A stretch of 64,000 nt of DNA. It comes from Candidatus Obscuribacteraceae bacterium (GTDB lineage: Bacteria > Cyanobacteriota > Vampirovibrionia > Obscuribacterales > Obscuribacteraceae). Below, in pieces: positions 1-51,418 of the stretch (positions within the stretch are counted from its first letter, which is position 1; each line of letters opens with the position of its first letter). The position numbers were made by a program, and so were the translations under genes. The notes beneath the pieces are model-generated. The model was not told where the DNA came from. It searched no databases and saw only the letters and a program-made list of their open reading frames with translations. The stretch lies in NCBI GenBank assembly GCA_044226015.1, contig JBGAHS010000003.1, positions 736,001-800,000 of the forward strand, given 5' to 3'.

Positions 1-2
1 TC

Positions 3-392
3 TGCGCCGGTCAGACGGCCGAACTCGACAAGGTCGCCGAGAAGTACAAGGACAAGGTCTTCTTCGTGCAGGTGAAGCCCTCGCAGGTCGCGCCGCTGCT
101 GCCGAAAATCGCGCAGCTGACGGGCGGTCGCCTGGCCTTCCCGATGCACTTCATCGACACCGGCAAGATGCCGCTGGTCGACGTGGGCATCAAGACCGCC
201 GACGAACTCGACAAGATGGTCGAGGTCGCCCTCAAGGTCAAGTCTGGCGAAATCCAGATTCAGTCGGCGCCCAGCAGCGACGACACCGCGCCGGCCAACA
301 AGGACGGCGATGCTTCTGCCAAACCCGAGACGCCCGCCAAGAAGGACGATGGCGCTCTCCCCGCAACCACGACTTCGCCCAACGGCAAGTAA
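3..392 (+). CDS. Thioredoxin-like protein with low-complexity C-terminal tail (5'-truncated by window edge)
   Basis: Frame open from nt 3: CAGQTAELDKVAEKYKDKVFFVQV...FPMHFI resembles the thioredoxin helix2-strand segment after CxxC; GC-rich codon style. Confidence 0.5.
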   Translation, partial: CAGQTAELDKVAEKYKDKVFFVQVKPSQVAPLLPKIAQLTGGRLAFPMHFIDTGKMPLVDVGIKTADELDKMVEVALKVKSGEIQIQSAPSSDDTAPANKDGDASAKPETPAKKDDGALPATTTSPNGK

Positions 393-423
393 GTCGAACT
401 GATATCCTGAAGGAGTCACTACA

Positions 424-2286
424 ATGTTGACCAATCCTGGCCTCATTCTGCTCGTCGTCGGTCTGCTCGGACTCGCCGGCATGTTCTGCTTCAACGACAA
501 GTTCCGCAAGGAGCTCGGTCGCACCGCGTTCAAGTGGCGCTGGATGTTCCTCATCCCCGCCAGCATCTACGCCGTCACCTCCATCTTCCTCGGCGTCGGC
601 ACCACCAACTCCCTCGTTCCCGGCGCCCTCGGTGCCGTCCTGCAGATCGTCATGATGATGTTCATGATGGTCATCCAGTGGGTCGCCATGATGTGGATCA
701 TGGCGCGTCCGAAGATCGACTGGTACATGCCGGGCGAAACCCTGGACAACCTGACCTGGGACGACTACGTCGGCAACGACGAGATCCGCGACAAGATGAA
801 GGACCTGATGGACTTCCTGCAGGACCCGGACAAGTTCCGCGCCAAGGGTGCGAAGCTGCCGAAGGGTATCCTGATGCGCGGTGAGCCCGGCGTCGGCAAG
901 ACCTACCTGGCCCGCATCATCGCCAACGAAGCCGGCGTTCCGATCGCCATCTGCGAGTCGAGCTCGATGCAGAGCCCGTTCGTCGCGGTCGGCGCCCTCA
1001 TGGTGAAGTCGCTCTACAAGAAGCTGCGCAAGCATGCTCTGACCTACGGTTCCGCCATCGTCTTCTTCGACGAAATCGATGCGATCGGCATGAGCCGTTC
1101 GCGTCAGGGTGGTGCTGGTGCTGCCATGTCCTTCATGGGTGGTGGCGCCGGCGGTGGCATCCTCAACGCGCTGCTCGGCGCGATGGATGGCATCAACTCC
1201 AACGAAGGCTTCATCGCCAAGACCGCTCGCCGCTTCGGCCTGCACAAGGCAAAGCCGGCCAACGCGACCGTCATCACCATCGGCGCCACCAACGCTCCTC
1301 TGGAAGCGCTGGACCCGGCTCTGATCCGTGAAGGTCGTCTGGACTGGAAGATCACCGTCACCTCCGCCGGTGACGAGGGTCGTGAGCAGCAGATCCGCTA
1401 CTTCCTCGGCAAGCGTCCGCACGACGAGTCCGTCGACGTGAAGGACCTGGTCTCGGACTTCCGTGGTGAGACCCCGGTCGCCATCGACACCTCGCTCAAC
1501 AACGCCATGATCCGCGCCATCCGTGCGGGTCGTGAGAAGATGAACTACAACGACGTCATCATGAGCCTCTGGGACCGCAACTTCGGCCTGCCGAGCCCCA
1601 TCACTCTGGGCGAGCTGGACAAGGAGCGCGTCGCCTACCACGAGGCTGGTCACGCTCTGGTCGCTGCTCTCTGGCCGATGACCGGCTGGAGCTGCTGGGG
1701 TGCGAGCATCCTGCCCCGCGACGGCGCCCTCGGCATGGTCATCACCAAGCCGTTCGCCGACGTGCACACCAACACCGAGGAAGACCTGTCCCGCCGCATC
1801 CTGCTGTCGGTCGCGTCCCGCGCGGTGGAGGAGCTGGTTCTGAAGATCAAGATGAACGGCTTCTCGGGCGACCTGCAGTCCGCGACCACGGTTGCGGTGC
1901 ACATGCTGTCGACCTACGGCATGGGCGAAGACCTGATCTCCTTCTCGGCGATCGGTCAGCAGACCTCGCCGGAAGTGCTCGCGCACGCCAAGCTCATCGT
2001 CAAGGCTCACCTCGAGCTGGCGAAGGAGCTGGTGACCGAGAACAAGGCCTGCGTCGAGGCGATCGCCAAGGGTCTGCTCGCTGAGCGTGACCTCGACGGC
2101 CACGCCGTGCGCAAGATCGCCGAAGCCACGGCGGTCACTTCCAAGGACATCGAAATCTGGCCGCGTGCGGCTGCGATCATCGAGCGTCTCAAGGAAGAGG
2201 CGAAGGCCAAGAAGGTGAAGGAGCGCATCGAGTTCGCCAAGGCCCTCAAGGCCGCCGGCGCCGATGACGCTTCGCTGCTCGGCTAA
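424..2286 (+). CDS. FtsH-like membrane AAA+ zinc metalloprotease (M41), divergent paralog
   Basis: N-terminal TM segments; Walker A GEPGVGKT; Walker B IVFFDEID; SRH TN...LDPALIREGRLD; HEAGH zinc motif; SD GAAGGAG. Confidence 0.92.
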   Translation: MLTNPGLILLVVGLLGLAGMFCFNDKFRKELGRTAFKWRWMFLIPASIYAVTSIFLGVGTTNSLVPGALGAVLQIVMMMFMMVIQWVAMMWIMARPKIDWYMPGETLDNLTWDDYVGNDEIRDKMKDLMDFLQDPDKFRAKGAKLPKGILMRGEPGVGKTYLARIIANEAGVPIAICESSSMQSPFVAVGALMVKSLYKKLRKHALTYGSAIVFFDEIDAIGMSRSRQGGAGAAMSFMGGGAGGGILNALLGAMDGINSNEGFIAKTARRFGLHKAKPANATVITIGATNAPLEALDPALIREGRLDWKITVTSAGDEGREQQIRYFLGKRPHDESVDVKDLVSDFRGETPVAIDTSLNNAMIRAIRAGREKMNYNDVIMSLWDRNFGLPSPITLGELDKERVAYHEAGHALVAALWPMTGWSCWGASILPRDGALGMVITKPFADVHTNTEEDLSRRILLSVASRAVEELVLKIKMNGFSGDLQSATTVAVHMLSTYGMGEDLISFSAIGQQTSPEVLAHAKLIVKAHLELAKELVTENKACVEAIAKGLLAERDLDGHAVRKIAEATAVTSKDIEIWPRAAAIIERLKEEAKAKKVKERIEFAKALKAAGADDASLLG

Positions 2287-2353
2287 TCACTGAGCACGAA
2301 CCGCTCACAGCGGGGACCGGGCAAACGCTCGGTCCCCGTTCACAACTATGGAG

Positions 2354-2391
2354 AGACGGAAAGCCCCAGTGGCTTTCCGTCTTCCTTTTTT
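2354..2391 (+). terminator. Intrinsic terminator after the FtsH-like unit
   Basis: AGACGGAAAGCC/GGCTTTCCGTCT stem followed by T-run; a second hairpin lies at about 2311-2338. Confidence 0.8.
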
Positions 2392-2483
2392 ACATTTTCG
2401 GCTTCTACTTCTAATAGTGAGTTTTGCCGAAACAGCCTGCATTTCTTTGCAGACTGCTTCGCTAAAGCTCCCGCGATCGCAGC

Positions 2484-2653
2484 GTGGAATTGATATCCAG
2501 GACTGTCGATATCTCAAACGAAAAACTCGAACACTTCAGTGTTCCTGTCTATCTTGCAAACGCATGTACAAAAACGAATTCGCAGAATTCGTCTGGACTG
2601 CGACATCTCCTGTCCTGGAGAGACGCGAGCAATGGTGCCCGCGTAGATTCCAC
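2484..2653 (+). promoter_or_regulatory. Structured 5' leader (multibranch fold) of the 2681-3537 unit
   Basis: GTGGAAT(2484)/ATTCCAC(2647), TCCAGGAC(2496)/GTCCTGGA(2612), inner hairpins GAACAC-TTCA-GTGTTC and ACGAATTC-GCA-GAATTCGT. Confidence 0.55.
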
Positions 2654-2680
2654 TCAAGCAACTGACCAAAGGAGGTCACT

Positions 2681-3037
2681 ATGTCTCGCTGCGATCAATA
2701 CGTCGGTCTGAACGCCTGGGCTAGCCGCTTTGTCACCCGCAAGGTCAAGGTTCGCGAACAGGGCGTGCGCTACTTCGCCGATGGTTCGAAGCAGAGCTTC
2801 AACCGTTGGCGGCGCATGCCTGTCGCGCGCTGCGAACACGCTGGTATCATCCGCGGTGCCTGGAAACCCGAAGTCGCGAAGCTTCACCGCTACACGATGC
2901 CGAACGGCGAAGTGTATGTGGAATTCGTGCAAGCTGCCCCCTGGTGCGGTGGTCCCAACTACTTCATCGCGCTCAAGGACAAGCACGGGCAGGTCGTTCA
3001 AGAGTCCCTCTGGACCGACGAGGAGATTCAGGGCTAG
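2681..3037 (+). CDS. Hypothetical protein, paralog of 28594-28857
   Basis: SD AAGGAGG; GC-rich codons; shares Y.GLN..A, L.RYT.P.G.VY.E..Q, YF..L.D..G and LWT..E with 28594-28857. Confidence 0.85.
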   Translation: MSRCDQYVGLNAWASRFVTRKVKVREQGVRYFADGSKQSFNRWRRMPVARCEHAGIIRGAWKPEVAKLHRYTMPNGEVYVEFVQAAPWCGGPNYFIALKDKHGQVVQESLWTDEEIQG

Positions 3038-3144
3038 CACCCTGGTCTTCTAAGGGAACTGCAGACAGGAGGGCGGTGTGCTTCGGCGCGCTGCCCTCCT
3101 GTTGTTTCGCCTCGCCAATTCGATCAATCTCAGAAGAGGGAAAT

Positions 3145-3537
3145 ATGGAAGAACTCATCAAGCGACTTTTCGCCGCATCTTTCGCGGCAGTTACGGCCGG
3201 CGCTCTTTTCGCCGTCTTCTACAACGGACTTTCCGGTCGCTACATGATCGGCTACGACTACGACAGCACCATCTGGATTGGCGCCGCCTTCGGACTGCTG
3301 ACCACCGCCGGGCTCGCCATCAGCGGGGCTCTGAAGAAAGGCGTGAAGTGGCCGCGCATCGTCTTCTCCGGCTTCGGCACGGGCGCTCTGCTCTATCTCG
3401 CCAACGTCTGGCTGAGCCTGAACGCCGGCTTCACGCTGAAGGGACTGGCGGTCGTCTCCGGCTACGGCGGATTCTGCGCGGCGTTCATCGCGCTTTTCCT
3501 CTGGTCGGTCTTCGCGCCGCTTCCTTCCCAGGAATAA
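3145..3537 (+). CDS. Small 4-TM membrane protein (130 aa)
   Basis: ATG at 3145 after GAGGG; four hydrophobic segments; upstream part of the 2806 ORF overlaps another gene and a hairpin. Confidence 0.8.
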   Translation: MEELIKRLFAASFAAVTAGALFAVFYNGLSGRYMIGYDYDSTIWIGAAFGLLTTAGLAISGALKKGVKWPRIVFSGFGTGALLYLANVWLSLNAGFTLKGLAVVSGYGGFCAAFIALFLWSVFAPLPSQE

Positions 3538-3544
3538 GCGCACG

Positions 3545-3581
3545 GAAAGTGGCAGTTGAGCGAAAGCTCTCTGTCACTTTT
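3545..3581 (+). terminator. 3' hairpin of the 2681-3537 unit
   Basis: GAAAGTGGCAG...CTGTCACTTTT with inner GAGC-GAAA-GCTC. Confidence 0.7.
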
Positions 3582-3653
3582 CGACTTTTAAATCACAAAA
3601 TTCGCGCATCTCAAACCCATTCTTGTCTTTTAAACGCCTTTTTGTCTTTTAAA
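3577..3653 (+). repeat. Three copies of tail motif CTTTTT-N4-TTTAAA
   Basis: CTTTTCGACTTTTAAA 3577-3592, ATTCTTGTCTTTTAAA 3619-3634, CTTTTTGTCTTTTAAA 3638-3653. Confidence 0.8.
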
Positions 3654-6150: not shown

Positions 6151-6461
6151 TTTACTAGGCCAGCAAACAGGTTTTGGGATTTTCCAATGATCCTAGCTCA
6201 AGCTAGCGCAGACTGGGCGAAACGAGCTATCGTAGGTTCCCATGCTTAGATCTGCAGTTCTGAATCGCAAAATTATCAGCAGCAAGACGTTGTTAGCAAC
6301 AGTGGTGCAGCGGCACTAATGATGTGCGGCCCGATTTTCTGTCTAATCTGGAAAGAAAGAGCCGCTAAACGCCCAAAACGTCCGCCTGGCGGGGTTACAT
6401 CTCACTCATCTACTTGCATGGCTGATGCACTGGTGGCTAAGGTGGTGGCGTCACTCCATAT

Positions 6462-6582
6462 TGCCGATCCGGTAAAGAACTCCCGAACACGCGCATAGCT
6501 CACACTCTTCATCACATCAAGCGAACCTGAGGTATCGCTAAGGAGAGTTGGCTTGCTGTTTGTTCTGGAATTCTTGTCGGCA
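6462..6582 (+). promoter_or_regulatory. Structured 5' leader of the aminopeptidase unit
   Basis: TGCCGA(6462)/TCGGCA(6577) and AAGAACTCCCGAACA/TGTTCTGGAATTCTT form a long imperfect stem. Confidence 0.5.
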
Positions 6583-6618
6583 GGGAAACATAACAAACCA
6601 ACGCAGAAAGGTTTTCTC

Positions 6619-7884
6619 ATGAATACCAAATCCGGTTCCGCTTCACCGCGGAAGCTTTCTCATGCCGCGCGTATCGACCGTCTCGGCAATGTTGCCGTGA
6701 ACGTCGGCCTCGGCCTTCAGCCCGGTCAGGAACTCATTCTCTCGGCCCCGGTCGAAGCGCTTCCTCTGGTTCGCGCCATCACCGAGCACGCCTACAAGGC
6801 GGGCGCTCCCGCGGTGCACACGTTCTACACGGACGAGCAATCGACGCTGGCGCGCTACAAGTTCGCTCACGACCACACCTTCGACCACGCGGCCACCTGG
6901 CTCGTCGACGGCATGGCCTCCGCCCTTCGCAACGGTGCGGCTCGCCTCTCCATCACCGGCAGCCACCCTTCGTTGCTCGCCGAACAAGACCCCAGCAAGG
7001 TGGGACGAGCCATGAAGGCTTCGTCTGCCGCCAGCCGCGGGGTCGCGAAAATCATCGGCGGCTTCGAGGTCAACTGGTCCATCGTGTCCTTCGCCAGCCC
7101 GGCCTGGGCCCGAATGGTCTTCCCGCACCTGCCCGAGAAGCAAGCCGTCAAGGCTCTTTGGGAAGCCATCTTCGCCGCATCGCGCGTCAACTGCGAAGAC
7201 CCGGTGGCCGAATGGAAGGCGCACAATAAGGCGCTCGCCACCCGCACCGCCTGGCTCAACGACAAGCGCTTCTCCACCCTGCACTTCAAGGGTCCCGGCA
7301 CCGACCTGAAGGTCGGCCTGGCCGACGACCACACCTGGTGCGGCGGCGCAGAGAAAGCAAGAAACGGTGTCGTCTGCAATCCGAACATCCCCACCGAGGA
7401 GGTGTTCACGACGCCGCACATGCTGCGCACCGAGGGCTACGTCAGCTCCACCAAGCCGCTCTCGAACAATGGCGCCCTCATGGACGGCATCCGCGTTCGA
7501 TTCGAAGGCGGTCGCATCGTCGAAGCGAGCGCAAGCAAGGGTCAGGACGCTCTCGATCGCATGATCAACGCGGACGAAGGCGCGCGCCGGCTGGGTGAAG
7601 TTGCCCTGGTGCCGCACTCCTCGCCCATCTCGGCCAGCGGCGTGCTGTTCTACAACACGCTCTACGACGAGAACGCCGCCAGCCACATCGCGCTGGGTCG
7701 TGCGTACAACACCTGCATCAGCAACGGCGGCAACATGAGCCAGGACGAGCTGAGCAGCCGTGGCTCGAACGACAGCGTCATTCACGTCGACTGGATGATC
7801 GGCTCTGACAAGGTCGACGTCGACGGCATCAACGCCGACGGCAGCGTCGAGCCGGTGATGCGCAAGGGTGAGTGGGCGCAGTAA
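6619..7884 (+). CDS. Aminopeptidase, peptidase family M29 (AmpS/PepS/AmpT type)
   Basis: NIPTEEVFT, LGEVALV, LYDENAASHIALG, SVIHVDWMIG motifs; ATG at 6619 after GAAAGG. Confidence 0.93.
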   Translation: MNTKSGSASPRKLSHAARIDRLGNVAVNVGLGLQPGQELILSAPVEALPLVRAITEHAYKAGAPAVHTFYTDEQSTLARYKFAHDHTFDHAATWLVDGMASALRNGAARLSITGSHPSLLAEQDPSKVGRAMKASSAASRGVAKIIGGFEVNWSIVSFASPAWARMVFPHLPEKQAVKALWEAIFAASRVNCEDPVAEWKAHNKALATRTAWLNDKRFSTLHFKGPGTDLKVGLADDHTWCGGAEKARNGVVCNPNIPTEEVFTTPHMLRTEGYVSSTKPLSNNGALMDGIRVRFEGGRIVEASASKGQDALDRMINADEGARRLGEVALVPHSSPISASGVLFYNTLYDENAASHIALGRAYNTCISNGGNMSQDELSSRGSNDSVIHVDWMIGSDKVDVDGINADGSVEPVMRKGEWAQ

Positions 7885-8029
7885 GGGTCAATTCCTGAAC
7901 AGGAGGTCCGCCATCATATCCGGTGCGCGGACCTCCTACTTTCCTAGCGTACCATCAGCAACTTTGGTGGCAGAACGGGTCTAACGATGCTGCTCTGCCA
8001 CCTTCCATGCTGATTCCCAAAAGGAGGAC

Positions 8030-8332
8030 ATGATGTCCTGGTACACCGGAAAAGTGCTTCAAATCCAAACGGAGGCGAAGTCAACCACCACAACCGAAAA
8101 ATCTCTGCTTTCGTGCAAGACCAGCACAACGACCGAAACGGTCTATTACCTGCTGATCCAAATCGAAGAACACAAGCAACCGATCGCCCTGCGAGGTTCC
8201 GCAAAATGGATGCCGGAACTTCCGCTTGTCCTGGTCGGCGACACCATCAGCTTCACCATTCCGCGCAACTCCGCGCAGTATGGATTTGCACAACTCAGCA
8301 TCCATTTCAACAAAAGAGAGCCCAACAAATGA
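8030..8332 (+). CDS. Hypothetical beta-rich protein (100 aa)
   Basis: SD AGGAGG; stop overlaps next start (ATGA). Confidence 0.7.
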   Translation: MMSWYTGKVLQIQTEAKSTTTTEKSLLSCKTSTTTETVYYLLIQIEEHKQPIALRGSAKWMPELPLVLVGDTISFTIPRNSAQYGFAQLSIHFNKREPNK

Positions 8333-8685
8333 AAACCCTCTACTCCTTCGTCGGCGGCATGGCTGCCTCCGCAGTCGCATTCCTCGCCGTCAACGAATTC
8401 GTCGTCAACAACGTCTTCACGTTCTGGCCCTCGCTTCTGGTCGGCGCCGCCTTCGGCTTCATCAGCAGCCTCGTCCTCGGCGTGACCGACACGACCAAGC
8501 TGGTGCCGGCCGGCATCACTTCCGGGCTGAGCCTCGCGGGCTTCATCGCCATTCTCGGCGGTATCGCTTCGCTGAGCGCTGGCGCCGGTGCAGGACTGCT
8601 CTCGCTGCCTGCCGCGATCGCCGTCTTCGGCTTTGTCGGTGTCATGGGAGGCATCGGTTACTCGCTCGGCAACAAGCTGGGCTGA
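8329..8685 (+). CDS. Small Gly/Ala-rich 4-TM membrane protein (118 aa)
   Basis: ATGA coupling to upstream gene; hydrophobic; C-ending codons. Confidence 0.8.
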   Translation: MKTLYSFVGGMAASAVAFLAVNEFVVNNVFTFWPSLLVGAAFGFISSLVLGVTDTTKLVPAGITSGLSLAGFIAILGGIASLSAGAGAGLLSLPAAIAVFGFVGVMGGIGYSLGNKLG

Positions 8686-8698
8686 GCCGACTTCTTGG

Positions 8699-8740
8699 GT
8701 GCTCAGGCATTGGGGAAACTCAGTGCCTGAGCACTTTTCT
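8699..8740 (+). terminator. 3' hairpin/terminator of the aminopeptidase unit
   Basis: GTGCTCAGGCATTG/CAGTGCCTGAGCAC then TTTTCT. Confidence 0.8.
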
Positions 8741-8809
8741 CGAACTCAGAGATTAAGATGAACTCCCTCAATCGCGTCCTCTTCGTAGCCATTTCATCCA
8801 TCTTTTTTT

Positions 8810-8825
8810 CTTTTTGCATTTTAAA
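8810..8825 (+). repeat. Tail motif copy
   Basis: CTTTTTGCATTTTAAA. Confidence 0.75.
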
Positions 8826-9010
8826 TATGCTGACACCATATACAATGGCACACAACACAACACCGAATATGACACCATCACGTTTCATTTGTTTTCACCC
8901 TCAGCTTGCTACCGACCATAGTAGATACACATGAAATTATTGAATCGCGCGAGTCCCCACGAGCAAGATCGGGTAGATCTTGCTAAGACAAATACTCTGC
9001 TGGAGCGTAA

Positions 9011-29826: not shown

Positions 29827-29835
29827 GGCGATTCC

Positions 29836-30138: not shown

Positions 30139-30489
30139 TCAGGTGCTGGACCTCGCGATCGCAGCAGCCTCTCGGGCGTAGCGGATGCCCTCCTGGCGCT
30201 TAGCCTTGATCATCCCAGCCGACACGACGAGACGGGTGCTGGCGCCGCTGAAATGCAAGCAATAGCGAGCAGTTTCGAGCAGGCGACGGCAGTCATCGTT
30301 GTGCGGCGCGTTGCGTCCGACGATCTCCTCGGCATCGCGAATCTCATTGCTGAGTTGCTCGCTGAGCTGGTGGATCTCTTCGGGAGTCGTGGTGTCCTTC
30401 TTCTGGGTCAACAGAAGATAGAGGAAACCAGCGATGACAACGCCGGCGATGAGGGCGGGCTGAATGAACTCAGGATGCGAAAGCAGCAT
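30139..30489 (-). CDS. 116-aa N-terminally anchored helical protein, first gene of array
   Basis: SD GAAGGA; TM helix then helical region. Confidence 0.75.
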   Translation of the reverse strand: MLLSHPEFIQPALIAGVVIAGFLYLLLTQKKDTTTPEEIHQLSEQLSNEIRDAEEIVGRNAPHNDDCRRLLETARYCLHFSGASTRLVVSAGMIKAKRQEGIRYAREAAAIARSST

Positions 30490-30986: not shown

Positions 30987-31002
30987 TTTAAAATGCAAAA
31001 AG
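30987..31002 (-). repeat. Tail motif copy downstream of pepF
   Basis: TTTAAAATGCAAAAAG; additional phased AAAAAG tracts at 31063-31096. Confidence 0.75.
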
Positions 31003-31100
31003 CAAACGAGATCTGAGACTGAAAAAAAATCGGATCCAAAAAACCACTACAACGCACACAGGCAAAAGGTCCAAAAAGTTCAAAAAGACTAAAAAGCCAA

Positions 31101-31134
31101 GTGGCTCAGGTGCTTTTAAGGCAACCCGAACCAC
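31101..31134 (-). terminator. 3' hairpin of pepF
   Basis: Minus strand GTGGTTCGGGTTGC-CTTAAAA-GCACCTGAGCCAC followed by repeated CTTTTT. Confidence 0.65.
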
Positions 31135-31162
31135 CCGGCAATTTAGCAGAACTACAGCCTGA

Positions 31163-32980: not shown

Positions 32981-33020
32981 TTTGGTCTCCTTTTCTGTGT
33001 TCATGCGCGAAAGCGCGAAG

Positions 33021-33167
33021 AATCCACCCTGACAAAATGCTAGCAGCAGCAGGCGCCAGGGATAATAAACCACGATCCACTCCCCAACAAAACGGCACAA
33101 TCCAAACTGCATTGCAGTGTGATTTTCCAAAAACAATAAAACTCGTTCTGGGCGGTGTGTGTGGATT
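33021..33167 (-). promoter_or_regulatory. Structured 5' leader of pepF
   Basis: Closing pair AATCCAC/GTGGATT; inner ACTGCA/TGCAGT hairpin. Confidence 0.4.
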
Positions 33168-33408
33168 ACAGGGGATGGACTGTGGACGTCCACACGTTAC
33201 GGAGCTGGGCGAAGAGAAGTAAAGGGAGTTTTTTCTGAACAAACAAAGCCTACGCTCCCCTTGGCAGCCGGAATGCAAAGTATATTGGGCTTTCTGTCAA
33301 AGTCCCCGGAATTAGCTGGCTAGAATCTAACACCGAATATAGAATCAACAGATAGTAGAGCTGACAAAGCGCTGGATTTTATTGTCAATCACCAAGGCCA
33401 AACAACGA

Positions 33409-38084: not shown

Positions 38085-39254
38085 ATGTCAAAAAAATTCA
38101 ATCCTAAAAAACGTATTCCCATGCTGATGCCAAACGATCAAAGCGCCATGATTGCGCCGGACATTCATGTTCCAGCAGAACAACAAATCGACTACGAATA
38201 CATGAGCATCTACCATGAACTCATGTACTCACCTGCTCTTTCAACGCCTGCTGTAAAAAGCAAAATCAGTGGCGAAGTAATCAGTTCCACTAAGTCAGGC
38301 TATTGGGTTGCCTACGGTGGTAAGACAGAGGGCTTCGCGCGAAAAGAAGAACAGGGCAATGAGCGCTTGAACGTCGGCGAAATTTGCCTCTTCGACGTGG
38401 TCAGTGTTGAAAGCGAAACAGGCTGTGTTTTTCTCAGTCGCCGAGGCGGTGAAAGTTGGGAGCAGCTAATAGCGGCAAAAGAAAACAACGCAACCGTCAC
38501 TGTTGAGGTGATGCAAATCGCAAGAAAATTCAACAAAATCTCTCACGTCAAAGTACGCTTCAACGCCGTCACCGGCATTGTGCCCTTCTCTTTACTGGGA
38601 ATTTCAGTGGAGAAGGTTCAGCAGTTGATTAACGAAAAACTTGAGGTGAGAGTGCATGAGATTTGCTCCAAGACAGGCAGGCTTGTGTTCAATCACCGCA
38701 TCATCAAAAACGAAGAGAGCCTGCGCAGAGAGTACTATTTGAATTCTCTGAACCCTGGTGACCTGCTTCAGGACGTCGAGGTCATCGGCATCTTGAGCAA
38801 TAATGCCGGCTCGAAAATCGGTGTTATCGTTCAAGCTGGAGAATGTAGGGGGTTGATTCACCACTCTGAAATCTCTAGGGCACATTTCCGCAATTCCTTG
38901 AGTGAATCGTTTCCGCCTGGCAAGAAACTTGATGCTATCGTACTTCCCTTCCGGGTTCGTGACGACGGCAAGAGAGAACTTGCACTCTCGCTCAAAGGCG
39001 TACAAGAGCTGCGAGCAAGCGAGTTTTTCGCAACGCGAAAGCTTGGCGATAGACTAGAAGGCACGGTTCAACGAAAGGTCGGATACGGTTTATTCGTCTC
39101 TCTCTGCGAAAGTGGTGAAGTAGACGGACTCTTGCACAACTCCCAGTTTTCCCGAGAGAAAGAGCCAACTATCGGAAGCAAAATCTGCGTTGAGATAATT
39201 GCTATCAACAAAGAGAGACGAACAGTCGGGCTCTCGATCGGTTCGTCGACTTAG
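38085..39254 (+). CDS. Divergent multi-S1-domain RNA-binding protein (RpsA-like)
   Basis: About four S1 repeats: G.VI...KSGYWV.YGGKTEGF, GLIHHSEIS..LALSLK, GTV.RKVGYGLFV..DGLLHNSQFS..VGLSI. Confidence 0.85.
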   Translation: MSKKFNPKKRIPMLMPNDQSAMIAPDIHVPAEQQIDYEYMSIYHELMYSPALSTPAVKSKISGEVISSTKSGYWVAYGGKTEGFARKEEQGNERLNVGEICLFDVVSVESETGCVFLSRRGGESWEQLIAAKENNATVTVEVMQIARKFNKISHVKVRFNAVTGIVPFSLLGISVEKVQQLINEKLEVRVHEICSKTGRLVFNHRIIKNEESLRREYYLNSLNPGDLLQDVEVIGILSNNAGSKIGVIVQAGECRGLIHHSEISRAHFRNSLSESFPPGKKLDAIVLPFRVRDDGKRELALSLKGVQELRASEFFATRKLGDRLEGTVQRKVGYGLFVSLCESGEVDGLLHNSQFSREKEPTIGSKICVEIIAINKERRTVGLSIGSST

Positions 39255-39266
39255 CGCACTATGACC

Positions 39267-39300
39267 GAAAAGAAAGGGACCAAAAGTCCCTTCTCTTTTT
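39267..39300 (+). terminator. Intrinsic terminator
   Basis: AAGGGAC-CAAAA-GTCCCTT then CTCTTTTT. Confidence 0.75.
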
Positions 39301-39351
39301 CATGCCAGCTCTACTACAAGCCATCGCAGTTCAGAGCTCTGGCTCTCGACC

Positions 39352-40032: not shown

Positions 40033-40493
40033 TTCTAATTCCCTCGTCCTTCGCTAAACAAAGTAAACAGGACGGCGTTGACATATTAGTAACCTCTACT
40101 AATGAATTGTCCGGGCGATTTCCAAACCCAATCTCGTTTCTCGATCATGAATTCGCCTTCAAATTTGGCTGCTTCGGCCACCTGCGCAAAGCTGAAATCT
40201 GAGAGTTCAATTTACTGGTAGCGGGAGGGGAAAGCTGGATACACAGTACTGACAGGCATTTCCAGGCTGGATGCTCTAATTGAATGATTGAACCTCAACT
40301 CAATTTTATTGTTGACGTTGGAATTCAATACAGCGAATGTCTTATTTTGCCGATAGATTCCGTCACATCATCACACCTCATCAGAACAAGCACAAAAACA
40401 AAGAAAACTCTTTCTCGTCGAAGACACGTTGGGTGTAGGAAAAGGAATCGCAACACGTAAATCAAGCGTGCCTAACTAACTGAGGATCTCACC

Positions 40494-41336
40494 ATGACCC
40501 TCCCGAAAAGATTGCGGCAGTTCCTGCTGCAACACAAAAGGAGCGCTGACTCTTTCTTGTTTCTTCTCTCGTGCCTGGCGCTGGGAATATTCGTCAGCAA
40601 CGAATTCTTCGCACTGAAGCCGAACGCTCTTATGATTGAGCCGGCCCAGTGGGTTTCGTTGCAGATGATTGCGCGTACAAGCATCTGGCTCTGTTTTGTA
40701 GCTCACTTCACTGTGTACGGGATGCTCAGCGGCAGCCTGTTTCGCTACATCAAAGAGCACTTTGTCGAATTACTAATCTGCATCACGTGGTTTCCACACC
40801 ACAACGTCAGTCTCCTGCAGGACTTCACCAGAGTTCTCTCCGTTGAGACTGTCCAGCTAGTGGGCATGCTCGCTAACGGCTTGCTGGTGGTTCGTCACAT
40901 CGTAAGAAGTGTAGCGACGCATCCAGTAATCGTGACGGGCTCTGTCTTTTTGCTGGTAATCATTTCTGCGTCAGAGCTGTTGATGCAGGTGGAACCGCAA
41001 ACGTTCCCGAACTTGTTCGACGCCATCTGGTATTCCGTGGTGACGACGACAACGATCGGTTACGGGGACATAGTGCCGCACACCTTCGCTGGTCGATGCA
41101 TCGGCATCGGGCTGATGATTACTGGTATCTCACTTGCCGGTACTTTCATCGCAATCGTTTCGCAATCACTTCAACGTCGCTTTGGTCAACAAGGCGACAA
41201 ACAAGAGATAGCGAATATGCAAGAGCGCCTGCGCGACCTGGAAGCACAAAATGCAAAGCTTACTGCTGCTCTCGAGCGCGACAATGAGCTTAAGCAAAAG
41301 CTGCTGGAAGCCCTCCAGAAGCAAGAAAACAAATAG
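40494..41336 (+). CDS. Potassium channel (6-TM-like, C-terminal coiled coil)
   Basis: Selectivity filter TTIGYGD; DAIWYSVVT; SD GAGG. Confidence 0.92.
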   Translation: MTLPKRLRQFLLQHKRSADSFLFLLSCLALGIFVSNEFFALKPNALMIEPAQWVSLQMIARTSIWLCFVAHFTVYGMLSGSLFRYIKEHFVELLICITWFPHHNVSLLQDFTRVLSVETVQLVGMLANGLLVVRHIVRSVATHPVIVTGSVFLLVIISASELLMQVEPQTFPNLFDAIWYSVVTTTTIGYGDIVPHTFAGRCIGIGLMITGISLAGTFIAIVSQSLQRRFGQQGDKQEIANMQERLRDLEAQNAKLTAALERDNELKQKLLEALQKQENK

Positions 41337-41350
41337 GATGCAGACGACTT

Positions 41351-41396
41351 AAGAGCTGGAGCTGGCAATTCAAAGCCTCTCCAGCTCTTTGTTTTT
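41351..41396 (+). terminator. Terminator of K+ channel gene
   Basis: AAGAGCTGGAG/CTCCAGCTCTT then TGTTTTT. Confidence 0.75.
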
Positions 41397-41610
41397 GCCA
41401 GCCACCTACTACCGGCACTCGTAGGGCGTAGCGAAAGGCGAAAGGCGAAACTCATCCAAGACCCGTCCAGAACACAAAGTTGATGCACATATAAAGTTGC
41501 ACTGATTGCTTCTGGTCATAGCAACGCTACCACTCGGCATAGTACGAAGAGCCGAAAAAAAAGAGTTCCCACGCCACGTACTTGCAAAAAAGTGCCAAAA
41601 AGACAAGAAA

Positions 41611-41647
41611 GCGGTCGAAAATCAGGTCTCCCTGATAATTCGACCGC
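41611..41647 (-). terminator. 3' hairpin of the 41659-42594 gene pair
   Basis: GCGGTCGAA..ATCAGG/CCTGAT..TTCGACCGC followed by repeated CTTTTT on minus strand. Confidence 0.7.
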
Positions 41648-41658
41648 CCCTTGCGCAA

Positions 41659-42057
41659 TCACTTCACGCGCCGCCGAGACACCGAGAAACGACCGCCAGA
41701 GCGATTGTGAATCTCCGTGTAGGTGACTGCGAAGTTACGTTCGCGAAGCAGCTTGATTGCGCCCTTGCGAACGTTTTCGTGCGGAACCTTCACGACGTGA
41801 ATCAGCGCTTCGGATTCACCGAAATGCCGCGACACGTATTCGTGATACTGAGCCTGAACCCAGTCGGCGAGCTCCAGCACCGCGCGTTCCTCCCGATTGA
41901 GATAGGGACCATTCGAGATGACGCGATGCTTCTTGAGAAAAGCACGCTTCAAGCCCAAACGGCTGTGGAACACCGCAGGCGTGTAACCCGGGTTCTCGAC
42001 GACCACACGAAGCTCAGGCTTCGTGCTTTTGCTCTTGCTTGTCAAAACCAAAGTCAT
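41659..42057 (-). CDS. Hypothetical basic protein, paralog of 42136-42594
   Basis: SD AAGGAG; VENPGYTPAVF, ELADWV..HEY..RH. Confidence 0.8.
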   Translation of the reverse strand: MTLVLTSKSKSTKPELRVVVENPGYTPAVFHSRLGLKRAFLKKHRVISNGPYLNREERAVLELADWVQAQYHEYVSRHFGESEALIHVVKVPHENVRKGAIKLLRERNFAVTYTEIHNRSGGRFSVSRRRVK

Positions 42058-42135
42058 TTGCTGACTCCTTTCATGCTAAGCGTCCCTATCCTTATCAGGG
42101 ACTGCAATTGAGGAGTCAGCCAGATGACTGCTCCT

Positions 42136-42594
42136 CTACGACCAGCGACGCACCATGAAGAAACTGGTGCCTCTGTCGCTGTGCCTCGTTTTCACGGCGA
42201 TGCCGCGAGACTGCATTGTCCGAATCGATTCGGCGATGACCGCATCGGACGGAACGCAATCGGTGAAGGCGACCGATTCGAGCTGCGCGACATGTCGGGC
42301 GCAATGCTCATTGTGGCTTTGTTCGAGCCAATTGGCGAACTCCACCGCAGAGACCCGAGCACTCGGTTTGGAACCGGTGCGGGCGAAGCCGATGACGTTC
42401 TGCATCACTCTTCTGTCCGCCCCATGCAACGCCGCAACACGCGGGTCATACGGGACAGGAAGCTGATTCCGAACGAGTCGGAACTTCGCCTCGAAAGCGC
42501 GACGGCGCTTCAACCCGCTCTCAAAAACCGCAGGACGAAACCCAGGGTTGTCGACGGCGAGATATATTCCAGAAGTGATGGCTCCTGAGTTCAT
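42136..42594 (-). CDS. Hypothetical basic protein, paralog of 41659-42057
   Basis: SD GGAG; VDNPGFRPAVF, EFANWL..NEH..RH. Confidence 0.8.
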   Translation of the reverse strand: MNSGAITSGIYLAVDNPGFRPAVFESGLKRRRAFEAKFRLVRNQLPVPYDPRVAALHGADRRVMQNVIGFARTGSKPSARVSAVEFANWLEQSHNEHCARHVAQLESVAFTDCVPSDAVIAESIRTMQSRGIAVKTRHSDRGTSFFMVRRWS

Positions 42595-42605
42595 TCCGTT
42601 CTCCG

Positions 42606-42621
42606 TTTAAAAGCCAAAAAA
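42606..42621 (-). repeat. Tail motif copy after the M4 gene
   Basis: TTTAAAAGCCAAAAAA. Confidence 0.65.
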
Positions 42622-42626
42622 AAATA

Positions 42627-42673
42627 GGGTGCTGGAGCCCAATGCAGCGAACTGCATCAGAACTCCAGCACCC
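42627..42673 (-). terminator. 3' hairpin/terminator of the M4 peptidase gene
   Basis: GGGTGCTGGAG/CTCCAGCACCC with inner ATGCAG/CTGCAT, T9 run on minus strand. Confidence 0.8.
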
Positions 42674-42705
42674 ACGAACTCAGTTACTCAGTCCGGAAGC
42701 GGAAC

Positions 42706-43728
42706 TTACGACTTCGACGGAACGACGCCGACCGCGTCCCAGGCCTTCTTCAGCGACGACTCGAGCGAGCCGAAGCCGAGCGGACCGCAGGCCGCGATGG
42801 TGTCGTGGGCGAACTTGGCGAAGTCCGGCTTCGAACCCGACGTGGCGCGAGCCGCGTACCAGATCTTGCCGGCCTTCTCCCAGGCGTAGCCGCCGACATC
42901 CGTGGCGAACAGCGCGAACGCGCGGTTCGGAATGCCGGAGTTGTAGTGGACGCCGCCGTTGTCGTCCCAGGTCTTGACGAAGTCCTTCATGTGCGCCGGC
43001 TGCGGGTCACGGCCGAGCTTCGGGTCGTTGTAGGCCGTGCCGGGCTTCATCATGTTGCGGATGCCTTCGCCCTTGATGCCGGGAACGAAGATGCCGCGAC
43101 CGAGCACCCAGTCGATCTGGTCGACCGTCTGCTTCTTCGAGTAGGCCTCGATGAGCTTGCCGAACACGTCCGAGTGGCTCTCGTTGAGGGCGCCGGACTG
43201 GTAGGAGTACTCGAGGTTCGACTCGAACTCGGTGACGCCGTGCGTGATCTCGTGACCGCACACGTCGAGGATGACGAACGACGAGAAGATCGTGCCGTCA
43301 CCGTCGCCGTAGGTCATCTGGGAGCCGTCCCAGTAGGCGTTGTCGTAGTCCTGGTCGTAGTGGACGGTCGAAACGAGCGCCATGCCCTTGTTGTCGATCG
43401 AGTTGCGGCCGTGGACGTTCGTGTAGAAGTCGCGCACGAAGCCGGTGAAGTCGTAGGCCTTGTTCACGACCTCGTCCTTCGTCGGAGCATCGCCCTCGAA
43501 ACGAGCCTTCACGCCGGGACGGCTGGTGCCGTTCTGCGCGTCGTAGACCTGGCGAGCGGAGTCGCCGGTGACACGGGGACGGATGCGCGAGCGGAACAGA
43601 CCCTGGGTCTTGGCGAGGGTGTTCAGCGCGGACAGGTTGTTGGCATCGCGGCTCGCGATCTGCAGCAGCAGGTGCGAAGGAACGATACCGGTGAGACGGC
43701 GAACGCCATTGGTGGGAAGCTGAGACAT
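42706..43728 (-). CDS. Protealysin-like M4 metalloprotease (short propeptide, no signal peptide)
   Basis: IVPSHLL propeptide motif, NAYWDG, HEITHG, GALNESHSD, GGVHYNSGIPN. Confidence 0.93.
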   Translation of the reverse strand: MSQLPTNGVRRLTGIVPSHLLLQIASRDANNLSALNTLAKTQGLFRSRIRPRVTGDSARQVYDAQNGTSRPGVKARFEGDAPTKDEVVNKAYDFTGFVRDFYTNVHGRNSIDNKGMALVSTVHYDQDYDNAYWDGSQMTYGDGDGTIFSSFVILDVCGHEITHGVTEFESNLEYSYQSGALNESHSDVFGKLIEAYSKKQTVDQIDWVLGRGIFVPGIKGEGIRNMMKPGTAYNDPKLGRDPQPAHMKDFVKTWDDNGGVHYNSGIPNRAFALFATDVGGYAWEKAGKIWYAARATSGSKPDFAKFAHDTIAACGPLGFGSLESSLKKAWDAVGVVPSKS

Positions 43729-43800
43729 AGTTTTCAGTCCTTTCTTGTGACGAATTAACGTCGGGTTATGGAGAATTCATCAGACACACGCACACAAGAA

Positions 43801-43897
43801 CACCCAGGCTCGAGACATATACAGTTCCACTCGACCGAAATCGATAGAGGGAAAGAGCTAATTGCTGCTGCTGTATGTGTTGGTTGAGACCTGGGTG
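43801..43897 (-). promoter_or_regulatory. Structured 5' leader of the M4 gene
   Basis: CACCCAGG/CCTGGGTG, ACATACAG/CTGTATATGT and an inner TTCC-CTC..GAG-TGGAA hairpin. Confidence 0.55.
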
Positions 43898-44277
43898 ATT
43901 TGAAATGCGAAACTGATGACATCTAGAACTTCGTCGATCTGACCTGTCCAACACAAGGAAATACAGCGTGTTTTCCCCGCTCGGCACAGAAAGGTGCCTA
44001 GCGGGACTGAACTAGGGTTACCCTAGCTGCGCAAAGCACTAATAATCCCCGCTGCAGTACCGATTTCGGTGCATTAGTGTTCAGCTGGTCTCTGGAAAAC
44101 CTAGCAGACACTCACTGCTAACCTCACACTTTCTTTCATGTTAGCTACCGCAAGCATCGAATTTAGGAGACAGCTGGGCCAGAACCACCCTTCTGACACT
44201 TGATCACGGTTATTATTTCGCAACAGTATTGCAAAGCAATAAAGCATGGTCTGCGCTAAGATTTAGGCATCGTTGAG

Positions 44278-49673: not shown

Positions 49674-49771
49674 TTTAAACGTGAAAAAGGCGAAAAAGAT
49701 TCTGAGATTCGCACTTTAAACGACAAAAAGAAATTGGTAAAAGACGCAATTTGTTTTTAAAAGTCAAAAAG
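49674..49771 (-). repeat. Three tail motif copies at exact 41-bp period
   Basis: TTTAAACGTGAAAAAG 49674, TTTAAACGACAAAAAG 49715, TTTAAAAGTCAAAAAG 49756. Confidence 0.85.
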
Positions 49772-49786
49772 GAAAAAAAGACGCAG

Positions 49787-49820
49787 AGAGCGGGCGATGA
49801 ATTGCTTCATCACCCGCTCT
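49787..49820 (-). terminator. 3' hairpin of the patatin unit
   Basis: AGAGCGGGCGATGAA/TTCATCACCCGCTCT. Confidence 0.8.
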
Positions 49821-49833
49821 TGCGCTCATGCGA

Positions 49834-50049
49834 TCAGGACTCGTAGTCCTTCTCGCCAGCCCACTGGTACTCGCCGTTGATGACGAGATAGACGACCGCA
49901 GTGCCCTTTCCGGCGGGAAGTTCGACATCCCACTCGTACTTCTGATCGGCCTTCACGTCTTGCGAGAAGACCTCGACATCGTTGTAGAGCACCTTGACCG
50001 TCATATCTTCGTCCGGCTTCACACCGAGCTTCAAGATTTTCTTACTCAT
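49834..50049 (-). CDS. 71-aa acidic beta-rich hypothetical protein
   Basis: SD AAGGGAG; C-ending codons. Confidence 0.75.
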   Translation of the reverse strand: MSKKILKLGVKPDEDMTVKVLYNDVEVFSQDVKADQKYEWDVELPAGKGTAVVYLVINGEYQWAGEKDYES

Positions 50050-50082
50050 AGTTCTCCCTTTCTGAGAGTTTGAAGAGCGCGA

Positions 50083-51027
50083 CTAGAGCGCGCCCTTCGC
50101 CTTTGCCTCACGCAGAACATTCAGCGTGAGATTCGTAGAATCCTTGACCATCGCATCTTGCGTTTTGGTCGAGATGCCGAAGCTCATGCCGGCGACGCGA
50201 GGCGACTTCATGTCGACCACGAGATGGCCGGCAGAAGTATCGACCTCGTGACGCTGGTAGTGAGTCAGCCCGAGCATTTCACGAACGTGACCGATGAACT
50301 CGATGGGCGAAAGCAGTTCGTTCGGCATAGCAGAGGCGAACCCCAGCTTGCTGACCAGACCCTTGCCCTTGCAGAAGTCCACCGGGTTGCGGTGATACAT
50401 CGCGCCGTCGATCAGCAGCCCACGACCATCCGGGTTGACGACCGGACGGAAAGCCCCAGGCAGCGCGCAGCTAGCCGTGAGCGCGAGAGCCAGGTCATAG
50501 TCCCTGCCCTCGAAGAGCACAGGCTTGCGCTGAATCGCATCGAACGCAAGCACCTTGAGCTGCTCGGTCGGCTTGAGAGAAAGTTCCTTCACCATGTCGC
50601 GCATGGATTCGAGCAGGTCCGGATACCAGGCGGACAGACTCTGAACCGCAAGGCGCAGGTCGGTGAACTCACTCTCGTGAAACGCGGCTTCCTCGCCCGG
50701 TGCCCCGATGGAACGGAAAGCAGCAGCCAGAAGAGGGTGACGCGGACCCAGAAGCTTCGTGAGCAGAGTGAACGTGCTCATGTCAGCGGGAAATGCCCGG
50801 GCAGCCTGGGTCAGGCGGCTGCGAAGGCGTTCGGCGAAGATGACTCGGATTTCCTCAGGACTGTAACCGTTGCAGTGAAGCGCGGCGACCAGCGACCCGA
50901 CGGAAACTCCGAGGAGGGTGCTGAAGCTGACGTTTTCTTCGCGGCAGGCTTTGAGGAAACCGATGTGACAGAAGCCTTTGACGCCTCCACCACCGAGTAC
51001 ACCTTCCACTGTGAAGTGGTTGGTCAT
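50083..51027 (-). CDS. Patatin-like phospholipase
   Basis: GGGGVKG oxyanion motif, GVSVG nucleophile, ASCALPG, DGA; ATG 51027 after GGAG. Confidence 0.88.
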   Translation of the reverse strand: MTNHFTVEGVLGGGGVKGFCHIGFLKACREENVSFSTLLGVSVGSLVAALHCNGYSPEEIRVIFAERLRSRLTQAARAFPADMSTFTLLTKLLGPRHPLLAAAFRSIGAPGEEAAFHESEFTDLRLAVQSLSAWYPDLLESMRDMVKELSLKPTEQLKVLAFDAIQRKPVLFEGRDYDLALALTASCALPGAFRPVVNPDGRGLLIDGAMYHRNPVDFCKGKGLVSKLGFASAMPNELLSPIEFIGHVREMLGLTHYQRHEVDTSAGHLVVDMKSPRVAGMSFGISTKTQDAMVKDSTNLTLNVLREAKAKGAL

Positions 51028-51093
51028 TTGGAAGTCTCCATCAGTTGCGTGCAGAATTCCCGGCAGATCTGGTCGGCCTCGAACATGCACTAG

Positions 51094-51201
51094 CCTGGTG
51101 AATTGGTGTTCAAACTCCGAACTACTACCCTCCAGAGAAACTGGAAGTTAAAGAAGCGGGGAGAGAGTTCTGAGCAGAATTTGAACGCCAATTGCACCAG
51201 G
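51094..51201 (-). promoter_or_regulatory. Structured 5' leader of the patatin unit (about 26-bp stem)
   Basis: Minus strand CCTGGTGCAATTGGCGTTCAAATTCTG pairs with CGGAGTTTGAACACCAATTCACCAGG. Confidence 0.65.
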
Positions 51202-51418
51202 GATGTGTGAAATAGAAAATGTGCCCTCACCCTACGTAAGCGCATAGGCGTGGAGGCAAGGGGCTAGTGTGGATACTACGAAGGCTCTGCGCGTAAATAT
51301 CTCACGCACTTGCGCAAGCACTGCGAACCAAGAGCCCACAGGGCGAGGCAGCAGCGCCCCAGATTAACCGCGCTTAACTTTGGTATCAGATACAGTGCTC
51401 TATCCTAGTTCGCGCGAT

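Follow-up and report, generated by a model that had tools for sequence, protein, structure and literature searches.

We analyzed a 64,000-nucleotide stretch (the window) of a Candidatus Obscuribacterales genome, G000:C6:736001-800000, in which GC-rich transcription units are interleaved with housekeeping genes; coordinates without a contig prefix refer to the window. The genome comprises 8.19 Mb at 47% GC and is 92% complete. The window adjoins the replication origin (oriC): dnaA lies at C6:815,684, 16 kb to its right, where the GC skew switches sign. The units belong to a second class of genes, passed on vertically and lying near oriC, that has a promoter, a codon optimum and a 3' palindrome of its own. 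An earlier account made from the letters of the window (the sequence-only reading) had described units with codons unlike those of their neighbors, and they lie where it placed them: their genes have a GC content at third codon positions (GC3) of 0.60-0.91, compared with 0.36-0.49 in neighboring genes, including clpC (0.46) and hup (0.43). Terminator hairpins, also claimed there, fold at all 11 window unit ends tested (-16 to -59 kcal/mol), and the search for integrases and transposases among the 54 open reading frames (ORFs) of the window found none, in agreement with that account. Host and class genes occur together on a 62-kb contig (run X1) and on a 24.8-kb contig (the independent run X2, from another study), and an assembly chimera is therefore ruled out.

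The leftmost unit (1..2286, plus strand) encodes part of a 213-residue protein and an FtsH-like AAA/M41 protease (424-2286), both at GC3 0.86-0.87, and is followed by two tandem terminator-type hairpins with a T tract (2290..2395, plus strand; -58.9 kcal/mol). The protease has 10 relatives at 52-84% identity, after which identity falls to at most 40%, the named relatives being mostly Bacillales. Next on the plus strand (2484..3537) are a structured leader, a 118-residue orphan (2681-3037) with paralogs at 28594 and outside the window, and a 130-residue membrane protein (3145-3537), closed by a terminator and a TTTAAA-type tail with sites ending at 3592 and 3653 (3540..3653). The positions given by the sequence-only reading for these two units (1-2391 and 2484-3653) hold, but their separateness does not: together they close a single run of 13 co-oriented genes, whose start is 11 kb beyond the left edge of the window. 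A third plus-strand unit opens with a predicted promoter (TTGCAT ... AAGGTGGTG) and a long self-pairing leader (6415..6618), encodes an M29 aminopeptidase (6619-7884) and two small orphan proteins (6619..8685; best matches in the plasmid collection 61%, in Alphaproteobacteria), and ends in a terminator, a TTTAAA site (8810-8825) and a palindrome, TGCTA-N7-TAGTA (8907-8923), all within 8686..8923. In run X3, one contig lacks 70 bp at 8733-8804, a stretch lying between this unit's terminator and its TTTAAA site.

On the minus strand, the unit at 26208..27200 holds a 212-residue membrane orphan (26425-27063), a terminator and TTTAAA sites at 26321-26336 and 26208-26223; that at 28486..30489 holds at least five small orphan genes (GC3 0.75-0.85), a terminator and two looser TTTAAA sites 40 bp apart; and that at 30987..33223 has a predicted promoter (33191-33223), a structured leader, the oligopeptidase F gene pepF (31163-33004), a terminator and a TTTAAA site (30987-31002). 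Two plus-strand units that had been listed as weaker proved to carry palindromes. The first (38085..39328) encodes an S1-domain paralog (GC3 0.52) followed by a terminator and a palindrome (39312-39328), and belongs to the class through its tail and not through its codons; this paralog evolves fast, with 31-38% identity to syntenic orthologs in the genus. The second (40350..41423) contains a potassium-channel gene (40494-41336, GC3 0.62), a terminator and the palindrome TACTA-N7-TCGTA (41407-41423). The unit at 41528..43900 (minus strand) comprises a structured leader, an M4 metalloprotease (42706-43728, GC3 0.91), two orphans, a terminator and a palindrome (41528-41544), and has syntenic GC-rich orthologs in the relatives G002 and G005. 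This M4 gene and three other class M4 genes encode protealysin-like proteases, and no emfourin-type inhibitor was found by Pfam in the tested small ORFs beside class M4 genes. Finally, the minus-strand unit at 49674..51259, which is syntenic in G007, consists of a predicted promoter (TTGCCT-N19-TAGGGTGAG, 51226-51259), a structured leader, a patatin gene (50083-51027) and a 71-residue orphan, and closes with a terminator and three TTTAAA sites 41 bp apart.

Genome-wide, 6,529 genes were called with a codon-model caller, whose starts and small genes are approximate. The synonymous-codon score was bimodal, and its upper mode contained 255 genes. Overall, the second class comprises ~250 genes in roughly 70-90 dispersed units, and the regions bearing it make up 8% of the genome: C6 398-842 kb, C1 1,141-1,276 kb, and an array across the end of C8 and the start of C9. 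Contig joins C6-C1 and C8-C9 were drawn from GC skew and gene continuity only; judging by the skew, the C1 part most probably follows C6 on the right arm. The resulting domain reaches ~420 kb to the left of oriC and 185 kb to its right, and is thus asymmetric. The C8/C9 array, almost wholly on the minus strand, holds ~65 class genes over ~58 kb (C8:713.8-735.1 kb and C9:1-38 kb) and ends in a single palindrome at C8:713,657. It lies far from oriC, before the likely terminus, and appears to sit 110-170 kb ahead of the skew switch on C9.

Class genes have a GC3 of 0.65-0.94, compared with 0.45 for the host genome-wide. GC content at second positions is 0.42 in both classes and the share of glycine, alanine, arginine and proline (GARP) is 0.28 in the class and 0.26 in the host, while GC3 is 0.72-0.83 versus 0.45; the bias is therefore synonymous, and the amino-acid composition host-like. 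At four-fold sites the strongest class genes use A at 0.02, C at 0.50, G at 0.32 and T at 0.16, and the preference is strand-asymmetric and amino-acid specific: GAA stays at 0.41, yet AAA falls to 0.06. AAG and CAG reach 0.94 and 0.93, compared with 0.53 and 0.38 in ribosomal genes. The sequence-only reading had named, among the outcomes that would speak against its proposal, a codon bias shared with ribosomal protein genes. We found a codon distance from the class of 0.74 for the genome's own ribosomal and elongation-factor genes and 0.82 for the host average, compared with 0.13-0.27 between the class and its counterparts in five other family sets; EF-Tu and EF-G have GC3 of 0.48 and 0.50. 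A highly expressed housekeeping class was rejected on the distance of 0.74. Distances to six named GC-rich bacteria were 0.23-0.35 (Sinorhizobium sample 0.23, Rhodococcus sample 0.25), in 30-kb samples that cannot name a prey. An 18-tRNA array at C10:356.3-358.6 kb, which recalls the trn arrays of cyanobacteria, carries mostly U34/G34 anticodons and not the C34 set favored by the class.

The bias has also persisted. Host four-fold sites are only 19-48% identical between members of the genus, while class orthologs have a high GC content at these sites (GC4) on both sides, for example 0.89/0.81 and 0.91/0.94 in M4 protease pairs and 0.65/0.66 in pepF. Since the bias is kept where host synonymous sites are saturated, it must be actively maintained and does not reflect recent capture; recently acquired islands were rejected on the same ground. 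Spacers inside the arrays have 52% GC, compared with 44%. Paralogs recur between units, as had been claimed from the window: 111 of 247 class proteins have one within the class.

The class has its own start signals. Leaders fold better than those of host genes (median z -1.76, n=74, versus -0.41, n=60; p=1e-6), which bears out the self-complementary leaders reported earlier. Strong Shine-Dalgarno (SD) sites, part of the same description, are also present, with a match of at least 5 nt ahead of 56% of 192 class genes and 22-24% of host genes, under a gene caller that gave the same SD bonus to both classes. The heptamer TAGGGTG occurs at 12/74 unit starts and 19/2,610 host starts. A refined promoter consensus, TTG(A/C)NT-N18-TAGGGTGAGG followed by a G-poor stretch, was found at 28/74 unit starts versus 4/2,610 host starts, the consensus (TAGGGT as -10) having been trained on the same 74 unit starts on which the 28 were scored. 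Many tRNA genes instead have TATAAT, TAGAAT or TACAAT upstream. The predicted class promoters are thus sigma-70-shaped but unlike the housekeeping TATAAT type, and the leader fold lies 3' of the predicted transcription start, not around the promoter. TAGRRT is a form of the actinobacterial -10. The TANNNT -10 and NTGACC-like -35 motifs of S. coelicolor, as given in the accessible part of PMC4895711, accommodate the class consensus, but do not discriminate enough to identify a recipient. Within the region, the class A RNase P RNA at 37337-37681 (minus strand), with a TGnTATAAT promoter just 5' of it, serves as a housekeeping reference; it was the only Rfam hit in the window, and unit leaders matched no known riboswitch at the gathering threshold.

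Two motifs mark the unit ends. CTTTTT-N4-TTTAAA occurs 8 times in the window versus 0.07 expected under a second-order Markov model, and all 8 copies lie on the sense strand of a unit, 3' of the terminator, just as the oriented tails had been described. The predicted association with the outlier codon class extends genome-wide, 21/26 copies falling inside the 8% of class regions. The tail has a fixed orientation and frequently recurs at intervals of 20, 32, 41 or 52 bp. Genome-wide, however, it is found at 12/74 unit ends only, compared with 39/74 for a second motif, the palindrome TA(C/T)TA-N7-T(A/C)GTA. A full inverted pair of TTTAAA half-sites occurs at C6:698,465-698,515, with similar sites at C6:698,215, C6:739,590 and C7:606,290.

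In the form TAC(T/G)A-N7-T(A/C)GTA, the palindrome has 35 copies, 29 of them in the 8% region, and its spacer is constrained: spacers of 4, 5, 6, 8, 9 and 10 gave 3, 0, 0, 1, 1 and 6 in-region matches, respectively. It sits just 3' of the terminator, and some convergent units share one copy. A matrix built from it scored at 39/74 class 3' ends, 2/71 class 5' ends and 14/2,180 host 3' ends, with 7/70 for host 3' ends inside the region. Either motif is present at 49/74 unit ends versus 20/2,180 host ends, and both at 2/74 only. No conserved site was found between genes inside the three long arrays examined. We rejected the palindrome as a bidirectional sigma-70 promoter, at least as a general explanation: its conserved positions mismatch T-12/A-11/T-7 in G000. 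Many of the relatives' palindrome sites contain TATAGT. Counting the motif across 41 genomes was uninformative, the reversed control scoring as high or nearly so. Two strict matches lie in intergenic DNA among phage-like head/tail genes and a tyrosine recombinase at C11:1,181-1,197 kb. Together, these promoter, codon and end signals agree with one of the two options offered by the sequence-only reading, a gene set transcribed and translated apart from the rest, with start and stop signals peculiar to it.

We then characterized the content of the class with Pfam, scanning 206 class proteins of at least 100 residues outside the window and, separately, the window ORFs. Peptidases were prominent (M4, M17, M41, M48, M50, S41, TldD/PmbA, rhomboid and ClpX-like), as were lipid genes, including patatins, acyltransferases, acyl-CoA synthetases and dehydrogenases, hydratases and a thiolase (beta-oxidation). 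There were also membrane proteins, transporters for peptides, amino acids and nucleosides, nucleotide salvage enzymes, PrkA-DUF444-SpoVR, MoxR-DUF58-VWA, SPFH and PTH2 families, a GH25 muramidase without an evident signal peptide, and two holin-like proteins with four transmembrane segments. The window adds M3, M4, M29, M41, a patatin, the channel and the S1 paralog. About half of the 206 proteins have no Pfam family, and no integrase, transposase, reverse transcriptase, capsid, sigma factor or replication family was found among them. Of 99 orphans, 96 had no PHROG match, and the one orphan searched had no viral-contig relative; a prophage or gene transfer agent remnant was rejected on these grounds. 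No phage sheath was found in the genome, and the terminase match was marginal only.

Several arrangements within the class deserve mention. Three paralogous lipid operons (C1:1,171-1,178 kb, C6:649-657 kb and C9:8-14 kb; 40-56% identity) share the order acyl-CoA synthetase, hydratase, acyltransferase, patatin, acyltransferase-like gene. At C6:665-674 kb, two PrkA genes precede DUF444 and SpoVR; all of them have the codon usage of the second class. A triplicated class orphan resembles PspA/IM30, which we record as a lead.

The class, its origin-proximal place and the palindrome recur in other genera. In the closed genome G065, 40/142 genes in nine stretches between 580 kb left and 140 kb right of dnaA have GC3 of at least 0.65, compared with 1/193 in eleven stretches elsewhere. 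Similarly, at a cut of 0.60, origin-proximal and other genes differ in G041 (38/61 versus 0/17) and G016 (26/103 versus 0/126), and the shift is also present in G091, G109 and G067. The class was not seen in four stretches of G022, two of G086 and one each of G011, G025 and G081. The palindrome matrix trained on G000 alone scored at 37/63 high-GC3 unit ends versus 36/311 other ends in ten relatives, which are kin and not independent, and the counts are therefore given without a p-value. Gene content per slot varies between relatives on a constant backbone. The sequence-only reading had looked to such loci for clean presence or absence; content does differ slot by slot, but orthologs remain syntenic and keep their bias across genera. 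For example, pepF is present in 49/104 family genomes, and its ortholog has GC3 of at least 0.65 in 25/30 family loci (exceptions G001, G077, G094, G095 and G081), though some positives may be GC-rich genomes overall. Its closest GTDB relatives are Candidatus Obscuribacterales/Melainabacteria (seven loci, 54-81% identity), followed by Chloroflexota (52-60%).

Elsewhere on the chromosome, an operon at C10:63-72 kb encodes a PF13814 relaxase (C10:63035-63886; E=4.9e-12) with an adjoining VirD4, a 215-residue membrane protein, VirB4 and a PrgI-like gene. The classical VirB4 family PF03135 was not found. The VirD4 ortholog is present in 95/104 family genomes (37/38 of high quality) and 0/120 other genomes sampled from the phylum, and the relaxase in 99/107 genomes of the order and 0/111 from other orders of the class. 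Operon order and housekeeping neighbors are kept in seven relatives, and no integrase was recognized beside it. The operon thus behaves as a core locus, not as an integrative and conjugative element. In the relaxase, D175 is invariant and E193 and D195 are present in 20/21 aligned proteins; these acidic residues are of the catalytic type. The motif of MOBC relaxases is D-x-E-x-D/E. A structure model reached a mean confidence (pLDDT) of 82.7, a single-sequence model being unusable at 42, and a sequence search with the relaxase profile brought up no solved structure. By Pfam family and residues only, the relaxase is probably of MobC type, PF13814 being the family of MobC relaxases, which are paired with VirD4 (PMC5357655, in the portion available). 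The origin-proximal place, the palindrome and this core conjugation operon all lie beyond what the sequence-only reading covered.

The operon also has, upstream, a gene for a 1,388-residue TrbL-like protein that resembles Bacillota clusters (a lead only). Other loci carry related genes. A 1,061-residue paralog of the TrbL-like protein lies at C1:171 kb. A second VirB4, split into frames of 699 and 193 residues, accompanies a PrgI-like gene beside TadE-like pseudopilins at L132:5274-8376 (C1:183-186 kb). At L134:2024-6737 (C2) there is a further, separate relaxase-VirD4 module of NikA-MobP type, as is usual for mobilizable elements, with a partial second copy at C12:328-330 kb. Giant ORFs of 14,391, 10,968, ~5,100 (two), 4,557 and 3,621 residues lie at C12:174-251 kb, C9:40-71 kb and C3:280-305 kb; giant proteins have been linked to predatory bacteria.

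We propose, with a probability of roughly 0.4, that the second class is cargo resembling transferred DNA (T-DNA), delivered by the core MobC-type relaxase-VirD4/VirB4 machine and expressed in a GC-rich prey or host. The relaxase would nick at the 3' site, the palindrome or TTTAAA tail acting as putative nick or entry site, and transfer would run from the 3' site to the promoter, template strand first, as for plasmid leading-region genes. The VirD4/VirB4 machine would pass units into another, presumably GC-rich, bacterium. There, the recipient's polymerase and ribosomes would express them, yielding proteases, lipases and lysis proteins that digest the cell from within; Obscuribacterales would then be predators or parasites. 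Three considerations lead to this proposal. A foreign codon optimum and promoter are held by selection, for which expression in another cell is the simplest explanation. A chromosomally fixed relaxase and coupling protein should need a chromosomal substrate. Finally, since units point to a 3' site (39/74 ends, versus 2/71 5' ends), their geometry would be that of template-strand-first entry. The fuller picture, in which Obscuribacterales are conjugative predators whose domesticated, order-wide MobC/VirD4/VirB4 machine injects dozens of origin-proximal units into GC-rich bacteria, with entry of each unit at its 3' palindrome, and recipients run a 250-gene self-digestion program for the attacker, is a more tentative suggestion.

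Several observations weigh against delivery. The single-strand promoter fold of Frpo type is absent (median z -0.31 over 28 promoters), and that promoter model is accordingly unsupported; TAGGGT could be recognized inside the cell by one of nine group 1/2-sized sigma factors in the genome. The S1 paralog has the class tail and a GC3 of 0.42-0.52, relatives included; pepF lacks the GC shift in G094, G095 and G081; and G067 combines a shifted class with the palindrome at 0/3 ends and a relaxase without two of the acidic residues. No palindrome was found in the stretch around the relaxase operon of G000, the link between relaxase and palindrome or TTTAAA tail is a candidate one, and the operon is present in G022 and G086, where the 4 and 2 origin-proximal stretches, respectively, showed no second class. 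Among the 206 class proteins no anti-restriction or single-strand DNA-binding family was found, and the importers and beta-oxidation enzymes fit a cell that eats at least as well as one that is eaten. We found no paper showing predation by the order. MOBC leading regions are without anti-defense enrichment, according to the part of PMC11541004 available.

A close rival keeps expression at home. The class may be a phase regulon of a feeding, dormant or terminal lysing cell, read by a group 2 sigma factor and translated with a different tRNA pool, the palindrome binding a protein that would insulate or anchor units in the origin domain; we regard this as possible, with some doubt. Importers, beta-oxidation enzymes, PspA-like and SPFH proteins and PrkA-DUF444-SpoVR would all suit a scavenging or dormant cell, sigma factors of the right size exist, and the S1 paralog belongs by its tail. 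However, we know of no bacterium that shifts its codon optimum to such an extent inside a single cytoplasm. The tRNA genes point both ways: GAA is retained and tRNA-Glu(CUC) was not found in the 92% complete genome, as a home pool would have it, but the 18-tRNA array lacks the favored C34 set, and tRNA-Ala(CGC) was not found there either, though GCG is favored. The asymmetry of the domain around oriC recalls the forespore-trapped genes of Bacillus, which likewise form an asymmetric domain around the origin. An endospore-type regulon was nonetheless rejected, Spo0A (Spo0A_C, PF08769) not being found in the same genome, and no regulator or sigma family was found in the class. Expression at home would also leave the core relaxase without a substrate.

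Transcription in the Obscuribacterales cell with translation by foreign ribosomes, through mRNA export, a shared cytoplasm or life inside a GC-rich host, appears improbable. It would explain the foreign codon optimum together with the importers, and the long 5' stems and strong 3' hairpins would stabilize RNA, but a conserved DNA palindrome outside the transcript and the clustering at oriC are left unexplained, and we know of no RNA-export system for a type IV secretion system (T4SS) of this kind.

The other option of the sequence-only reading, cassette capture acting in trans, here taken as foreign cassettes from GC-rich donors inserted by a tyrosine recombinase at the 7-bp-spacer sites, is very unlikely, and cassette capture as the cause of the bias is largely refuted. 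Recombinase core sites are inverted repeats much like the 5-7-5 arrangement of the palindrome, the genome has 19 tyrosine-recombinase matches, one of them at the domain edge, array spacers are GC-rich, and gene content differs slot by slot between genus members. The sites, however, are 3' only (2/71 5' ends) and absent between array genes, and no excision joints, which circular or excised forms would leave, were found in the contigs examined. The bias is unameliorated at saturated host synonymous sites, kept in syntenic orthologs, and accompanied by a host-like amino-acid composition; the closest outside relatives of the FtsH-like gene that bear a name are mostly Bacillales, which are low in GC, and 96/99 orphans lack a PHROG match. 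GC-biased gene conversion, or some other local mutational regime affecting genes that recombine often, would leave the site of expression unchanged and is the least probable explanation: spacers are somewhat GC-rich and strain differences fell mostly in class units in one examined stretch, but they spread over both classes in a second, so that an enrichment was dropped, and the strand-asymmetric, amino-acid-specific four-fold sites and the distinct promoter and SD strength are not what it predicts.

The feature does not behave as an island, integron, prophage or highly expressed class, and by analogy would work most like T-DNA. With Agrobacterium T-DNA and its VirB-VirD4 system (PMC4451040, in the part available) it shares cargo signals unlike those of the carrier and the presence of a relaxase, coupling protein and VirB4, and the cargo would likewise serve the carrier's nutrition. 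Unlike T-DNA, the ~250 class genes lie on the chromosome, spread near oriC over some 70-90 units that carry bacterial promoters and SD sites; two direct-repeat borders were not found, a single site at 39/74 3' and 2/71 5' ends taking their place, and a PF13814 (MobC) relaxase replaces VirD2 in the proposed transfer. For Vampirovibrio chlorellavorus, of the same class of bacteria, delivery of a T-strand expressed in prey was proposed, the plasmids carrying no hydrolase cargo in the portion of the paper available (Soo et al. 2015, PMC4451040); that T-type T4SS is largely plasmid-borne and aimed at an alga, whereas the operon described here was not found in other orders. Plasmid leading regions share GC-rich, codon-adapted genes on the first-entering strand, adapted to the recipient (PMC11541004 and PMC13478746, as far as their available text goes), but here there is no Frpo fold, no anti-defense family was found, and many candidate entry sites lie on the chromosome. 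MOBC relaxase-VirD4 modules of integrative and mobilizable elements and plasmids likewise place a PF13814 relaxase beside VirD4 (PMC5357655, same portion), whereas ours is near-universal, essentially single-copy and syntenic across the order, with no adjacent integrase recognized.

Integrons and superintegrons also string small orphan genes of varying content into long arrays of one orientation; here, unlike there, no attC-like repeat lies between genes, no IntI is in the class, and units have their own promoters and terminators, and an integron was rejected on the absence of a conserved site between genes in three arrays and of an integrase among 206 class proteins. The proviral segments of polydnaviruses in parasitoid wasps are also dispersed, vertically inherited and meant for expression in another organism, but they are eukaryotic, excised at direct repeats and packaged in virions, and here no sheath and only a marginal terminase match were found. 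In the open-licence literature (main texts, without supplements) we found no account, for this order, of a genome with two gene classes, of the motifs or of the core operon; judging by its available text, only PMC4451040 joins Obscuribacter, conjugation and VirB4.

With promoter, palindrome, candidate relaxase and gene list defined, both leading readings are directly testable. Under either, one chromosome has long kept two expression languages, the second of which differs in promoter, codon and end signals and occupies a constant position around oriC. Expression within the cell, if true, would point to a new cell state with a different translation optimum. Delivery as cargo, if true, would be a new mode of bacterial predation and a bacterium-to-bacterium counterpart of T-DNA, and would supply the cargo missing from the 2015 Vampirovibrio proposal. 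It would also predict a lifestyle for a widespread uncultured order and explain why its members may resist pure culture.

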